Part shown: positions 21,300 through 27,517 of the stretch, piece by piece | Position numbering within the stretch: position 1 is the first letter of the stretch | Layout of the letters: the number at the start of each line of letters is the position of its first letter | Assembly: GCA_019057815.1 (NCBI GenBank) | Contig: JAHLWR010000025.1 | Coordinates: 1 to 49,081, forward strand | Direction of reading: 5' to 3' | Length of the DNA stretch: 49,081 nt | Source: Candidatus Heimdallarchaeota archaeon | GTDB taxonomy: Archaea; Asgardarchaeota; Heimdallarchaeia; Heimdallarchaeales; Heimdallarchaeaceae | The notes under the pieces: generated by a model | Database searches by the model: none | Seen by the model: the letters and a program-made list of their open reading frames with translations, nothing else | What the model was told of the DNA's origin: nothing | Made by a program: the position numbers and the translations under genes

Positions 21300-21384
21300 T
21301 GGTGCGGGGAGGGAGATTCGAACTCCCGAACCACTAAGGACTGGATCCTAAGTCCAGCGCCTTTGACCGCTCGGCAATCCCCGC
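21300..21384 (-). tRNA. tRNA-Leu(TAG)
   Basis: 85 nt, long variable arm, CTGGA-CTTAGGA-TCCAG, CCA. Confidence 0.96.
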
Positions 21385-21439: not shown

Positions 21440-21570
21440 TTTATCCTTGGGTGTTAGAGAACGCACGTTATGAAACTTGGTTAAAATTGCCAGAGGCTTT
21501 TTAACCGTCGTTTGAAGGATTCCCCTCACGTGCATTGAGGGGAGGGAAGGAGCGTGAAGATAAAGGACTA
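21440..21570 (-). ncRNA. putative omega/reRNA scaffold overlapping the tnpB 3' end
   Basis: Hairpin UCCCCUCA/UGAGGGGA (21521-21543) whose loop AUGCACG can pair with CGUGCGU (21461-21467); second hairpin GGUUAAAA/UUUUAACC (21479-21506). Confidence 0.55.
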
Positions 21571-23459
21571 CCTGGTTTTGAAGAGATGTTGAGAACAGCA
21601 TTAAAGTGAGTATTGACTTTTAGCCCACAGTTCTTACAATAAGCATAATCGTAATTACCTACCTTGCGATCGAGTACTCCTCCACAAACGTTATGGAGTA
21701 AACTGGTGCGGAAGGCATTAACTTGCTCTAGGAGAACATCATAACCTAGTTCTGAAGAAGCTAGCCAGACAGCTTTGTCGTAGATGAAAGAGTTATCGGG
21801 CATGGTGTAGATAGCTTTAGCTAGTGCACCTTTGGTTCCTGTAGGGTCAACATTCAATTCCTCGATCTTCAAGACGCGACTGTGGTGTTTAACCATAACT
21901 GAGGCTATAAAGAAAGGTAAAAGACGAAGAATCTCACGCATAATCCTACTCCTGCGGGTATAGACTTTATTCAATTCCCCAAGGAGTTTACAACAACCTC
22001 GAGAATCGCGGTTTTTACGCTTCTTAGCTAATCCTCTATTAAGTTCTTTGAGAACTTTATCAGTTAAGAGGTTATAGCGTTCTGACAGTTTGAGCAAATC
22101 TGGGGGAAGATCAATGGGGGTGTTAAATGTCACCATGAACTGTCCTAAGCGGTTGATGTCTACACCCAAAGTAGGGATATTACCTGAGGGGATAGTAGAA
22201 ATATAGTGGTGTAGGAGTGTAGTTGAGAGGAAACATTCATGTTCTCCTTCTAAAACTACATCTACACGAGGTTTGTAACTGGGAGCTTCACCACTGCTAA
22301 CTTGTAAGATTTTGATAATTGCGCCATTACGCAGATATTCCAAGACTTTGGGAGGGAAGAGCATATGTGCTTTGACTTTCTTTTTTCCTCGTTGAGGAAA
22401 ACCTAACTCTGTCCATCCTTGCTTTCTAACTTTTGCAGTCAATACTTTAGCATTACCTTCGCGGGTAATAACATACTCATTTTTCATTAACAATTTTATT
22501 GGTAGTTTTCCTTTTTTCTTTCTTTTAAATGGTTGAGAAACAACCTTCTCTGGTAGGGTAGAAAGAATTAACTGAGGGACACTCTCCATTAGATGGTCAA
22601 AGAGTGCGAAAACTACTATCAACCTTACAGCTGAAAAAAGCTTTCGGTTTTTCTTACCTATAGATTCGGTTATCTGCTGAGCGAGTTTTTTGAGACTTTT
22701 CCAACGAGATTTTTGAGGAATGTTAATCCACGAAGTGACAAAAGATGCTACTTGCTGTTTATCTTGAACTAATAATTGCAATTTATTTATGAAGGACTGC
22801 TGGTTAGTGGAGAGGTTGGTAATTGACGAAAACTCGTGAATCTTATGTTTATACGCGTCTTCTACGGCTAACACAACTTCTTCATGTGTTATTGTTGGTA
22901 ATATATGATTAAATTTTATCTTGGGGTTTTGGTACTTTTTCGCATATTTTCTGTTCCAGTAGGAGTCTGTTTGTAACCTTGTGCTAGTTAGAAGATTAAT
23001 AACGAACCTTCTTCCCACTTTCCAATATTTCTGGAAACTGTATTCAGTATAAGGTGAGCGTCCGAATATAATCCATTCTAGTAACTGTTGAGGGTTTTTC
23101 TGCCAGAAGTTAAATATTCCTTGTATTTTCTTCTCTTTGTCCACTTTTCCTTTAATAGCTATGTGTAACCAGTGGAAAGCGCTTTCAGCTATATTCGGAT
23201 TTTTACCTACTTCTTTACCCAATTTTCTTGTAAAGAATTTCTCTTTAGGGTTGGAACGATAGAGTTCCAAAGCTTTTGCAACTGTTGAGGGAGTTAGGAG
23301 CATTTTTTGCTCTTTTTCAAGTCTTTTAATTCGCTGGTTGATCTCTACTCTTTTGTTCTTACTCAAGTGTTCAAACGCTAACTGGTAACTTCTCATCACC
23401 TTCGTATGAGGGAGAGAAGAGTGTATTTTTGTTGTTGACTGTGCTTGAGTAGACATCAT
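21501..23459 (-). CDS. tnpB: large TnpB/Cas12-like RNA-guided RuvC protein (652 aa)
   Basis: N-terminal WED-like strand VMRSYQLAF, RuvC-I LGVDIN, RuvC-II KIEELNV, AFRTS, zinc finger HxxC...CxxC, RuvC-III NTHFNAVLNI. Confidence 0.8.
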   Translation of the reverse strand: MMSTQAQSTTKIHSSLPHTKVMRSYQLAFEHLSKNKRVEINQRIKRLEKEQKMLLTPSTVAKALELYRSNPKEKFFTRKLGKEVGKNPNIAESAFHWLHIAIKGKVDKEKKIQGIFNFWQKNPQQLLEWIIFGRSPYTEYSFQKYWKVGRRFVINLLTSTRLQTDSYWNRKYAKKYQNPKIKFNHILPTITHEEVVLAVEDAYKHKIHEFSSITNLSTNQQSFINKLQLLVQDKQQVASFVTSWINIPQKSRWKSLKKLAQQITESIGKKNRKLFSAVRLIVVFALFDHLMESVPQLILSTLPEKVVSQPFKRKKKGKLPIKLLMKNEYVITREGNAKVLTAKVRKQGWTELGFPQRGKKKVKAHMLFPPKVLEYLRNGAIIKILQVSSGEAPSYKPRVDVVLEGEHECFLSTTLLHHYISTIPSGNIPTLGVDINRLGQFMVTFNTPIDLPPDLLKLSERYNLLTDKVLKELNRGLAKKRKNRDSRGCCKLLGELNKVYTRRSRIMREILRLLPFFIASVMVKHHSRVLKIEELNVDPTGTKGALAKAIYTMPDNSFIYDKAVWLASSELGYDVLLEQVNAFRTSLLHNVCGGVLDRKVGNYDYAYCKNCGLKVNTHFNAVLNISSKPGSPLSSRSFPPLNAREGNPSNDG

Positions 23460-23526
23460 TCACTCAGTAATGTTATGTTTAAATTAATATATAAACTACA
23501 TAAAAAACAGCTAGTTTCCTTCTTTG

Positions 23527-23856
23527 TTATTTTCCTCTCTATTGTCTATGTAATCTCCCTACAAATGAAGTGAATAAAGCTATCATGTCTTCCACCAATT
23601 TCTCCTCAGTTGATTGGTTTGATAGCTGATAAGCATTCTTTTTGATTGTCAAGTGTTACTATCATAAACCCACCATGAAGACTTTTCCATTATAGTTAGT
23701 GGGTCACACTACGGAGCTAGCTAGGCTCCCTGTTTCATTGATAGTTTACTGAGGGAAAACTACTTGGTAGTTGCGAAACAGGTAAGTGACGAAGATCACA
23801 CTATCTCTATCTCTAAACAGGACTACAGCTTCTATTGATAATCTGTTTAGTTGATA
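23527..23856 (-). pseudogene. tnpA: remnant of IS607-type TnpA serine recombinase
   Basis: 23527-23616 translates QSTEEKLVEDMIALFTSFVGRLHRQ*RGK*, the IS607 TnpA C-terminal helix (ELVEDL...SF.GRL); upstream fragments LNRL..EAV...IFVTY and HG..IVTL lie in broken frames. Confidence 0.7.
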
Positions 23857-24033
23857 ATTCTAGATTCTCAGAAATGTTTGTTTAATAGATTAGTCTACTG
23901 ATTCTTTTAATATTCTTTTTGAGAGAGATATCATTTTATTTACTAAGTGCGAGTTATCATATTAGCACTCTATCTCAATAAATTTCGATTGATAAAAAGT
24001 CTTAAAGTGTTTCTTAAAAATAAATGATATAAC

Positions 24034-26130
24034 TTATGATTCAAGGAACTGCTTAGCTTCGTGAATAATTTCTTTTTTCCGTTCATCTGATTCATAAGAG
24101 AAACTTTCTGATTTACTTAACCACTCCCTTATGAATTTTTTTGATGGAACTTTCTTACTTTTTACAGCTCCCTCTAATATTGCAGTAGGCACATTTAGCT
24201 CGAGATTATCAGGTAGTTTTTCTTTATTCTTCCAAACCTCTAGAAAGTTGTAAATAGCTTTTTCCCATTGTTTGGTCTGTAAGAATAATACACCTTTCAA
24301 ATAAAGAAGAAGTGCATTAGTTGGGTCTCTTTGTAAACCAGTATCACAAACTTCTATAGCTTTTTCAAAGTTATAATTTTGTATGAACGTGAAGATAATT
24401 TGAGTAACATTTTCTGTTTTTTCTGGTTTAATTTTTGATGCTAGTTCATATTCTCTAATAGCTTCATCCTTTTTTGATAGTTTCATATATACATTTCCAA
24501 GAGAATAATGTGATTCAAAATCTTCAGGATTTATCAATAAGGCAGTCTCAAGCATTTTCTCTGCTATAGTCCATTGTTCTTGAGCTAAGTAAATAAGTCC
24601 AAGTTCTCGATAAGCTAGGTCATATCCAGATGCTTTCTTAATTAATTTTCCTAAATATGAACGAGCATCTATTTTTTCAGAATAACTAATAGCTTTTTTG
24701 TAAATATTTATAGCTTCTTCTATCCTATCCTGCTTTTTGTATATTATACCTAATGAAACGTTAATTAGAGGAAATTCAATACCATGCTTTATTGCTTTTA
24801 AAAGTGCTTTTTCAGCTTCTTCTTCTTGATTATTTGCCAAATAAGATAATGCAATACGAACATATACTCCTTGATGTCTCTTGTTTAATTTGATACATTG
24901 AGAAGCGTAATTAATCGATTTCTCCCATCGTTCTAAATCGAAATAAGATGTACTAAGATGATAATATGCTTGATGATTCTTTGGTTCAATATGAATTATT
25001 CTTTCAAATGCTTGAATTGAGACCAAAAGTAATTCTTCTGTATTTTTACTTTTAATTGCTTGATATTGAGCATTAAAACCAATTTTCAGTAGAGTATCTG
25101 TATTTTCATTAAAGACCAGAATTATCTCTCTAAAAATGTCGCTCACATCTTTTTCTGGTACAATTTCTACAATTTTCTCAATATAAGCTTCTTCAATAAA
25201 TATTTGCTTTATGTTCCAATCTACAAAGAATTCATTTTTATATAAATTTAATAACCATATTTCCCACTCCCAGTCTTCACCTTTTAATTTTCTATATTCA
25301 CAAACCTTCTTAATTTCTGAGAGATCGAAATTCTGTTTTCCTACATAAAGACCACAACAGTATAATCTCTTTATTGATTGTAGTATTATTTGTTCCTTTA
25401 CATCAATTTCTTCTTTATACCTTCTATCCATTTCTACGAAACTAAGTAAAAGAGAACCCACTGTACCATCAAAATTCTGGTTTGCTTGAATCCATTTAAC
25501 ACCAAAGTGTTTCGCGATCCCCAATCCTTCCTCTTTAGATATTCGTTGTATTTCAATTTTATTATTCTCAAAGAGCTCCTCTAATCCAAAATTGAACTCT
25601 TTTTTGAATTTGTTATTTGCTCTTGAATATTCTATTCTAGATCTACAAGCAAACAAAAGAATACAGTCTTGCTTTTGGATTTCTCTAATAACTAAATGGA
25701 AATTTATTCTTGCAACAAATTTATGTAAATCGTCAATTATAATTAGCTTTGTTCTCCAAAATTTAAGCAATCTTGGAAATCTTACATTTGATTCATAAAC
25801 ATCAACATTTTTCACTATTGTTACAGCGTATTTTTTTTCTACTCTTCTTATTGCTTCATAGATGTTCCTTGTTTTTCCACTTAGAGGTTTTCCAATTATT
25901 ATAGTATTTTCCTTGTTTTCCAAAGATTCTACTAGATTCTTCATCTCTTCAGTTTCATAGTAATATTCATGAAACTTGTTAATCTCTAAATGTTTTGGTT
26001 TAATTTTAATAGGTTTTTTCCAAATTACGGTACAAAATTTGGGAATTTTCAAGCTAAGTAAATCAAAACCAATAATACCCAAAATATCTGCTAGCACACC
26101 AATTATATTTAGCATTAGCAAATTCCACAT
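24034..26130 (-). CDS. N-terminal TM, P-loop (STAND-like) NTPase and C-terminal TPR array protein
   Basis: Hydrophobic N-terminus, Walker A GKPLSGKT, Walker B LIIIDD, sensor-like LLFACR, roughly eight TPR-like repeats. Confidence 0.75.
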   Translation of the reverse strand: MWNLLMLNIIGVLADILGIIGFDLLSLKIPKFCTVIWKKPIKIKPKHLEINKFHEYYYETEEMKNLVESLENKENTIIIGKPLSGKTRNIYEAIRRVEKKYAVTIVKNVDVYESNVRFPRLLKFWRTKLIIIDDLHKFVARINFHLVIREIQKQDCILLFACRSRIEYSRANNKFKKEFNFGLEELFENNKIEIQRISKEEGLGIAKHFGVKWIQANQNFDGTVGSLLLSFVEMDRRYKEEIDVKEQIILQSIKRLYCCGLYVGKQNFDLSEIKKVCEYRKLKGEDWEWEIWLLNLYKNEFFVDWNIKQIFIEEAYIEKIVEIVPEKDVSDIFREIILVFNENTDTLLKIGFNAQYQAIKSKNTEELLLVSIQAFERIIHIEPKNHQAYYHLSTSYFDLERWEKSINYASQCIKLNKRHQGVYVRIALSYLANNQEEEAEKALLKAIKHGIEFPLINVSLGIIYKKQDRIEEAINIYKKAISYSEKIDARSYLGKLIKKASGYDLAYRELGLIYLAQEQWTIAEKMLETALLINPEDFESHYSLGNVYMKLSKKDEAIREYELASKIKPEKTENVTQIIFTFIQNYNFEKAIEVCDTGLQRDPTNALLLYLKGVLFLQTKQWEKAIYNFLEVWKNKEKLPDNLELNVPTAILEGAVKSKKVPSKKFIREWLSKSESFSYESDERKKEIIHEAKQFLES

Positions 26131-26298
26131 CTTCCTCCATTTATTCCTTTAATTTTATATAAATACTTTTATTATCAAATGAATCAATTTAAAATATAAA
26201 GCTAAGCTTGTTATTATTGTCTAGTTCAATTTCTACTGGAGTACACAATGTTTTCGTATCACTTTTCGAATTATTATTGCTGTTTACAATTGATTCAT

Positions 26299-27180
26299 TC
26301 ATTTCTTCACATCTTCTGATTCCAATTCCGGATTATTGATGTTAATCAAATAATACAAAACAACAATCATCTTTTTCATTATTTTATACATTAATGGCAG
26401 TATTTGTACTAACTCACTTTTCTTTGAATATCGTTTTTCTCTTTCTAAATCATATCGAGAGGAACTTTGATGTTTTTCAAGATTAGAATGCATAATGACT
26501 ACATATCCTAAAAGTAACATAATATAAAATGTATTTCTTACTTTTTGAAAATATTCGCCAGATTCAAGCATATTTCGAAATACTTCGTTAACTTTGAGTT
26601 TTTGTTCATTAGTAAGTTCTATACTGTATTCGTTTTCAATCTGAGAAAAAATATTGGATTTTGTTCTGTTTAATTCATTCAAAGCAAACTTCATAGGGAA
26701 TTTATCAAACATGAAAACTTCACCCGTCCTAATTTGCTTTTCTAAAGAATCATAGTCTTTTAGTATCATCTTAAGTTGTTTAAGAGGTATATAGAGATCA
26801 TCTTTTGTATGAAATTTTTTCTTAAAATCTGGATGTAGTTTATGAATCACTAGTTTTCGTAAGTTTTGCTCTATTTCAGGATTAATTGTTTTAATTTCAT
26901 CTAATTTTGATTTTATTTCTTTAATAAAAAACTCAACTAATTCATGTCTCACTTCTCTTCTCAACTCTTCTTCGTTGTATTCTTTGAGAAGAGCAATTAT
27001 AGATTTACCAAACTTTTCTACAGCTTGTTGTATATTCGTTACAGCATGAGAATAATCTTCATCCCTATAATCTCTATAATAGGCGTTTAAGTCTCCTTCA
27101 GAATTTCTCAACATTCCCATTACTGTTCTAGTAACTTCATCTTGAGTTTGATTTTCTTCTTTCTTTGAATTTTTATTCAT
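26299..27180 (-). CDS. HEPN domain protein with large insertion
   Basis: DL...DYSHAVTNIQQAVEKFGK...RHEL and C-terminal SSRY match the HEPN (PF05168-type) pattern. Confidence 0.7.
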   Translation of the reverse strand: MNKNSKKEENQTQDEVTRTVMGMLRNSEGDLNAYYRDYRDEDYSHAVTNIQQAVEKFGKSIIALLKEYNEEELRREVRHELVEFFIKEIKSKLDEIKTINPEIEQNLRKLVIHKLHPDFKKKFHTKDDLYIPLKQLKMILKDYDSLEKQIRTGEVFMFDKFPMKFALNELNRTKSNIFSQIENEYSIELTNEQKLKVNEVFRNMLESGEYFQKVRNTFYIMLLLGYVVIMHSNLEKHQSSSRYDLEREKRYSKKSELVQILPLMYKIMKKMIVVLYYLININNPELESEDVKK

Positions 27181-27407
27181 TACATTGAAAATGAGAAATC
27201 CCTATTTAAACATTAAATTTACAGCTCTGGTTATAACAAAAAAAACCATTTTTACTCTCTCTCCTCTTATGCAGTTAGAGAACAGTGGTAGAAGTAAGCA
27301 TTGTACTAAAAATGTAAACGGGAGACACAATAACAAATCTAAAACTAACAAAACATTTTTTTTGGAATTGAAAAAACAAGAAAAATGGTTGAAATAAAAG
27401 TTAACAT

Positions 27408-27517
27408 TGGTGCCCCGACCGGGATTTGAACCCGGGTCTGCGGAGGTCTTTACATGCGGACATCAAACCACAAAATTTGAAAGTCCGCAATGATTGGCCG
27501 AACTACACCATCGGGGC
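27408..27517 (-). tRNA. tRNA-Glu(TTC) with 32-nt intron at 37/38 (27446-27477)
   Basis: BHB CUUU/AAAG with CAA and ACC bulges; spliced arm GCGGA-CTTTCAC-TCCGC; CCA. Confidence 0.93.

Follow-up and report, generated by a model that had tools for sequence, protein, structure and literature searches.

An RNA fold at the 3' end of tnpB (minus strand, positions 21461-21543) was identified by comparative sequence analysis as the 3' scaffold of the ωRNA of an IS607-type TnpB. The window, i.e. the whole stretch of DNA analysed, comprises 49,081 nucleotides of a contig from Candidatus Heimdallarchaeota archaeon (JAHLWR010000025.1), and relatives of this TnpB were found in genomes carrying the same label. 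The structured RNA stops at the boundary of the element, and the loop of its hairpin enters a pseudoknot just before the predicted guide. According to the reading preferred here, to which a probability of about 0.78 is assigned, the guide derives from the host flank and would direct TnpB back to empty sites composed of ACCGT plus the guide sequence. As far as can be judged from sequence comparison, this ωRNA end belongs to a known type of system, of which it represents a variant distinguished by a short scaffold, a core other than GG and a putative His-type enzyme. The guide itself is ordinary; unusual are the ~85-nt scaffold, the 652-aa TnpB with its His residue, and the 5.8-kb rearranged copy, which is devoid of a left end and of most of tnpA and carries two cargo genes. 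Coordinates of all features are compiled in Table 1.

Table 1. Features of the tnpB insertion and its surroundings in the window
Feature	Position	Strand	Evidence
Host tRNA-Leu(TAG), neighbour outside the element	21300..21384	-	tRNA scan
Predicted guide, first 16-20 nt past the element end	21441..21460	-	conservation drop after 21461; match to empty allele
Pseudoknot 3' strand and element right end	21461..21467	-	covariation, two clades
Stem P2: basal 4 bp (21513-21510 with 21476-21473) and nested hairpin 21506-21479	21473..21513	-	covariation
tnpB, 652 aa: WED, enlarged helical REC, RuvC (D434, E533), zinc finger, His618	21501..23459	-	profile, predicted structure, alignment
Stem-loop P1, 7-nt loop forms the pseudoknot	21521..21543	-	covariation
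TATA-like box upstream of tnpB	23488..23495	-	sequence; match to promoter region of mini elements
tnpA C-terminal remnant (~28 codons), IS607 serine recombinase	23548..23631	-	64 % identical to residues 182-209 of full TnpA
~140-nt structured RNA domain, without mini promoter; tnpB lies between domain and 3' scaffold	23670..23819	-	
Cargo: 698-aa protein, weak STAND-NTPase match and TPR repeats, 29 % GC	24034..26130	-	
Cargo: 293-aa HEPN-domain protein, 27 % GC	26299..27180	-	domain match
Short left arm, match to mini-element interior	27237..27273	-	20/21 match to mini C20
Left junction: host ACTGT, then 8-nt repeat of guide bases 1-8	27274..27286	-	

Fold and covariation of the 3' scaffold

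A first-pass annotation, made from the sequence alone, had described an 8-bp hairpin (P1, 21543-21521) with the loop AUGCACG, its counterpart CGUGCGU (21467-21461) about 60 nt downstream, and a nested hairpin (21506-21479) covering the stop codon of tnpB; all of these coordinates proved exact on the minus strand, with CGUGCGU located 53 nt past the P1 hairpin and the TAA stop at 21503-21501. Single-sequence evidence for the fold is modest and only suggestive, as the hairpin-plus-kissing pattern occurred once in the real window vs five times in 60 shuffled windows and the fold of the whole region reached a z-score of -1.76. The test therefore rests on related copies. Across 48 close homologues, 94.4 % of the cells in P1, pseudoknot, basal stem and P2 were paired, and the scaffold model built from these sequences displayed both-sided changes at 12 pairs, a type of count that is inflated by kinship among the homologues. 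None of 500 shuffles scored as high as the real alignment of the 48 scaffolds, and slid controls were paired at only 21-41 %. In the same set, P1 was paired to 97.7 % and had an invariant core, the basal stem of P2 was paired to 100 %, and its upper stem showed both-sided changes at seven of 11 pairs. The pseudoknot was changed on both sides at four of its seven pairs, in each of two clades; its outermost pair is not conserved, i.e. six base pairs are well supported and the seventh is variable.

In a distant clade (20 homologues, 38-49 % protein identity), P1, basal stem and pseudoknot are kept with 91.6 % pairing. Two P1 pairs are changed on both sides in this clade, the P2 basal AAC/GUU is converted to AAG/CUU, and three further pseudoknot pairs are exchanged, with compensation, between the mobile and the distant clade. 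Changes that arose independently in two clades, and at several positions, would be hard to explain without a conserved fold. The pseudoknotted ωRNA end proposed initially is hence borne out by covariation in 48 close and 20 distant homologues; the stems and the pseudoknot are conserved among homologous 3' flanks of tnpB, with conservation dropping after 21461. An outer stem formed by 8-mers starting at 21564 and 21447, also suggested at first, had to be abandoned, since the host flank containing its 3' arm is different in all other copies and its two arms pair with a probability of ~0.2. Upstream of P1, within the tnpB coding sequence, no conserved structure was found, and the tnpB-linked scaffold is therefore ~85 nt long. 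Neither the scaffold nor the RNA of the mini elements described below matched an Rfam family.

The conserved end might serve merely as a DNA signal for TnpA, with an incidental RNA fold: recombination requires a conserved right end, and the 3' arm of P2 doubles as an imperfect inverted repeat to the left end of the element family, likely representing a TnpA site. P2 and the pseudoknot, however, contain compensated changes along with many G-U substitutions, and the fold is retained in the distant clade without tnpA; this explanation is thereby already largely refuted and is regarded as extremely improbable.

Element boundary, guide and target motif

Conservation stops right after 21461 in all 11 right-end copies of the window's genome and likewise in 47 related full-length loci; therefore, the guide starts at 21460, with the GG at 21446-21445 residing inside it. 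Of the two starts considered initially, the one near 21460 consequently stands, and the one after the GG at ~21445 falls, along with the presumed GG core. A guide length of 16-20 nt appears plausible.

The last three bases of the pseudoknot 3' strand (21461-21467) agree with the final three of the motif found at the left flanks of other copies; this motif reads ACCGT and presumably represents the TAM. In 38 of 38 elements with both ends, left-flank position -3 equals right-end position -3 (32 CGT/CGT and six TGT/TGT, five of the latter with a compensating loop change); the search pattern demanded A at -5 and GT at -2/-1, leaving only columns -4 and -3 unbiased, and the six TGT elements may represent one lineage. 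The ACCGT motif is also seen in left flanks without this filter. The GG crossover dinucleotide is absent from the family junctions, which share CGT or TGT, and crossover therefore takes place within these three shared bases, probably at CG/TG. In four further loci (L018, L053, L057 and L063), for which left ends were not found, the right end reads GCAT and is accompanied by a compensating loop base; a third target motif may be represented here.

The empty site was detected in a same-genus sister genome (G001, allele L092), where ACTGT is directly followed by the guide sequence. Thus, the guide corresponds to host flank, specifically to the spacer just upstream of the tRNA-Leu promoter. The guide is variable, derived from the flank and matches an empty site behind a conserved motif. 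Against the homing reading, the only empty allele seen reads ACTGT and not ACCGT; the window copy may therefore no longer cut its own site.

Further targets of the guide were not apparent. In the window's genome, one second match of 14/16 was obtained, which lacked the motif, and the sole motif-plus-8-nt seed was the element's own left junction. Viral contigs of IMG/VR contained two exact 16-mers of the guide, neither with upstream ACYGT, which is by estimate no more than expected for a collection of that size. Across 47 genomes, motif-plus-seed matches were no commoner than for a reversed control, the empty site excepted. The earlier remark that the guide has no second copy accordingly holds well beyond the window, as no TAM-flanked copy was found in the genome, the order or the viral contigs searched. 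A domesticated element with a fixed guide is not indicated, given the empty same-genus genome and the lack of a TAM-flanked second site; the sequence is best read as an ordinary homing/retention guide.

The TnpB protein

The 652-aa ORF showed a weak match to the TnpB/Cas12f zinc finger, and both profile and predicted structure (pLDDT 84.5) match Cas12f, ISFba1 TnpB and ISDra2 TnpB with a WED-REC-RuvC-zinc finger architecture. Residues D434 (RuvC-I) and E533 (RuvC-II) are invariant; the canonical D-E-D triad is not preserved, with the RuvC-III Asp being replaced by His618, a residue present in 52 of 52 aligned proteins and also the normal state of mobile copies. With His at RuvC-III throughout the family, DNA cutting by the His-type TnpB remains putative. 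The Asp-to-His exchange has been described in other TnpB branches, with activity presumed but not shown; archaeal branches of that study are Ser-6 and RIIIr-6 (PMC10691335). Values of dN/dS of 0.13-0.17 vs four close copies indicate purifying selection on tnpB. Residues 635-652 (pLDDT < 50) form a disordered tail encoded over the RNA. The window's genome contains three more tnpB copies, with identities of 88, 84 and 41 %, as well as several derivatives without the gene; no viral homologues of the TnpB protein were found.

Composition and history of the insertion

The empty allele joins window position 27282 to 21460, and the insertion therefore measures ~5.8 kb, an extent that, like the cargo, had escaped the first-pass annotation. 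It occupies the spacer between tRNA-Leu and an intron-containing tRNA-Glu(TTC) (27408-27517, minus strand) that was missed by default tRNA and Rfam scans and found with an intron search. From the left, the insertion is composed of the 8-nt duplicate of the guide start, the arm from the mini-element interior, the HEPN gene, the gene for the STAND-like TPR protein, the ~140-nt domain and 42 nt of filler, after which come the tnpA remnant, tnpB and finally the right end. Over 23478-27436, the sequence is confirmed at 100 % identity by an independent Logan contig (L151). The two cargo genes are absent from the empty allele and matched no PADLOC model. The low-GC HEPN and STAND-like TPR genes (24034-27180) sit inside the element as captured genes and have paralogues on C22, C23 and C34; they may constitute a defence pair.

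Relatives harbour a tnpA gene with HTH and serine-recombinase domains upstream of tnpB (full-length in L043, L054, L022 and L065), and the family is therefore placed in IS607, as the first-pass annotation had supposed; the window copy itself retains only ~28 codons. The TATA-like box preceding tnpB could act as promoter element. In five other loci (L001, L013, L048-L050), tnpA is truncated within ~25 bp of the point at which it breaks off in the window, and these loci have a different upstream segment in common, which contains a 150-aa ORF; a mobile sublineage without tnpA is thereby suggested.

No intact left end was detected: the left-end motif is absent from contig C21, and the junction enters the interior of a mini element. 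The window copy combines ACTGT on the left with GCGT on the right and has a duplication of 8 nt; discordant junctions were seen in no other element, the junction bases of 38/38 other elements being concordant. Its likely history is a normal insertion followed by break repair that swapped the left end for host sequence via a 7-nt microhomology. In a second metagenome (L044), the same site is filled by a different element variant (element 85-96 %, flanks 96-98 % identical), as expected from repeated break-and-repair. The window copy is best explained as immobilised and repeatedly patched by recombination. The locus pairs L043/L051 and L044/window share insertion sites and differ in their tnpB variants, with mosaic identity along the gene; this mosaicism could stem from recombination among copies or from assembly chimeras, and could in part be an assembly artefact of repeats.

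Neighbouring tRNA genes and the distant clade

The guide had been noted to read into the region upstream of tRNA-Leu(TAG). Its position there is correct, as the tRNA gene starts at 21384, 76 nt past 21460. A special meaning is not supported, because only one site among 46 mobile-clade loci is concerned and this site is empty in the sister genome: two of 46 mobile-clade loci, both at the window's site, lie next to a tRNA gene vs nine of 20 in the distant clade. Judged by these distributions, the tRNA-Leu neighbour is incidental.

A regulatory role, in which the His-type TnpB would bind without cutting and the window copy would be kept to control tRNA-Leu via the guide upstream of its promoter, is considered very improbable. 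The guide does lie 76-57 nt upstream of tRNA-Leu, beside an A/T-rich TATA-like box conserved in relatives, the copy is no longer mobile, its site is occupied in the second metagenome (L044), and members of the distant clade are fixed beside tRNA genes. Yet the filled allele has TGCGT and not ACCGT before the guide match, the insertion is missing from the sister genome, the window's site is the only one of 46 mobile-clade loci near a tRNA gene, and His is normal in mobile copies too.

The distant clade includes L036, L079, L081, L083-L085, L089 and L090 (3' ends); L035, L073 and L074; L076, L078, L086 and L087; and L003 and L038. Its loci have no tnpA and carry fixed guides common to several genomes. 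Several of these guides look like the antisense of tRNA arms (Cys D-arm, Leu-UAA, T-arms of Met or Pro), and the genes frequently have tRNA-Cys, -Leu, -Asn or -Pro as a neighbour. In the window's genome, the copy on C22 possesses a fixed guide without tRNA match.

Mini elements and the 5' RNA domain

Gene-less mini elements of ~375-415 bp retain both element ends together with a TATA-like box and the same 3' scaffold, to which a 5' domain of ~140 nt is added. A rival explanation regards the 85-nt piece linked to tnpB as no more than the 3' half of the guide RNA; the complete RNA of ~240 nt would be furnished by the minis, which would act in trans as entire RNAs or contribute a tracr-like 5' partner, and the window would hold a rare copy in which the two halves flank the gene in cis. 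The 5' domain covaries strongly (97 % paired, both-sided changes at seven of 16 pairs) and was detected in 18-19 of the 24 genomes that contain the mobile clade and in none of seven without it, but minis need the same TnpA, so that this co-occurrence is expected anyway. The domain was absent from 77/77 other tnpB loci within the flanks fetched; the window is the only tnpB locus tested with the domain upstream, which is otherwise confined to gene-less minis. The lack of conserved structure in the tnpB coding sequence upstream of P1 would also agree with a split RNA. A near-invariant bulge of the domain is complementary to the P1 3' strand; its variants, however, are G-U-compatible transitions only, without true covariation. 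Furthermore, P1 and pseudoknot of the distant clade are kept in genomes without detectable 5' domain (G008, G011, G028), and the RNA of ISDra2 can dispense with its 5' half (PMC10097598). Taken together, the split RNA is judged unlikely, and it is similarly doubtful that the His-type TnpB would need the ~140-nt domain supplied in trans by minis, i.e. a tracrRNA-like split without CRISPR.

No hammerhead- or HDV-like core motifs were seen by eye in the 5' domain. In two minis (L131 and L004, C12:159356-159685), the domain is partially duplicated in tandem. Four right-end-only fragments (L009, L010, L011, L120) have neither a left end nor the greater part of the 5' domain, and each has its own flank.

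Proposed mechanism and comparison with known systems

In the preferred homing reading, the RNA would be transcribed through tnpB past the element end and, as covariation indicates, would fold into P1, P2 and a pseudoknot closing right at this end. The next 16-20 host bases, beginning at the established boundary, would serve as guide. TnpB and RNA would then recognise ACCGT plus a guide match, that is, the empty site after excision or on an element-free chromosome copy. By analogy to other IS607/IS605 systems, a cut at the empty site would lead to repair copying the element back. The element's own end, TGCGT, differs from ACCGT at -5 and -4, which would prevent self-cleavage. Such a mechanism was shown for CboTnpB (10.1101/2023.11.20.567912), ISXfa1 (PMC10711439) and IS605 elements of Geobacillus (PMC10055086).

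With ISXfa1 (PMC10711439) and the CboIStron TnpB (10.1101/2023.11.20.567912), the Asgard family shares the serine-recombinase tnpA upstream, the RNA overlapping the gene end, the pseudoknot joining a hairpin loop to the bases just before the guide, the guide derived from host flank, and the identity of scaffold end bases with left-flank motif bases. Unlike these, it has CGT or TGT instead of GG at the junctions, a putative TAM ACCGT instead of TGGG or GGG, a conserved scaffold of ~85 nt, a protein of ~650 aa with His at RuvC-III, and no group I intron (no Rfam match). ISFba1 TnpB with its RAGATH-18 reRNA (PMC11061315, PDB 8iaz) likewise belongs to the IS607 family and has a pseudoknotted scaffold of the same fold class; the Asgard scaffold, in contrast, matches neither RAGATH-18 nor any other Rfam family. 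The ISFba1 scaffold comprises 187 nt and is separate from the gene, which encodes a protein of 387 aa (PMC11061315). In the ωRNA of ISDra2 TnpB (PMC10097598, PDB 8h1j), the loop of a stem likewise forms the pseudoknot with the final bases of the scaffold, nested stems come next, and a disordered protein tail is encoded over the RNA, as for residues 635-652 of the Asgard TnpB. ISDra2 differs in being an IS605 element with a Y1 transposase and a 116-nt core with triple helix (PMC10097598). The conserved Asgard scaffold is shorter than both this core and the ISFba1 scaffold, which counts against the preferred reading.

The branch RIIIr-4 (PMC10691335) resembles the Asgard family in its RuvC-III Asp-to-His exchange with intact RuvC-I and RuvC-II, but is devoid of the zinc finger and linked to RHH/MazE, whereas the Asgard family has retained this finger and is associated with a serine recombinase. 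Mobilised standalone ωRNAs acting in trans are known (PMC10691335); the Asgard minis, which have no gene but possess a promoter, the same 3' scaffold and both ends, are similar to these and differ by the extra ~140-nt domain that tnpB-bearing copies lack.

Significance

No biochemical test of a 650-aa His-type Asgard TnpB was found in the literature searched. For such a protein, it is now established where the scaffold ends and where the guide starts, and a candidate TAM and a naturally empty target are at hand. Directly testable are, therewith, whether TnpBs with the Asp-to-His exchange cut DNA, and whether a scaffold of ~85 nt suffices for the larger protein or the additional domain of the mini elements is required. 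The ACCGT and ACTGT sublineages represent a natural pair, differing jointly in target motif, element end and pseudoknot loop.
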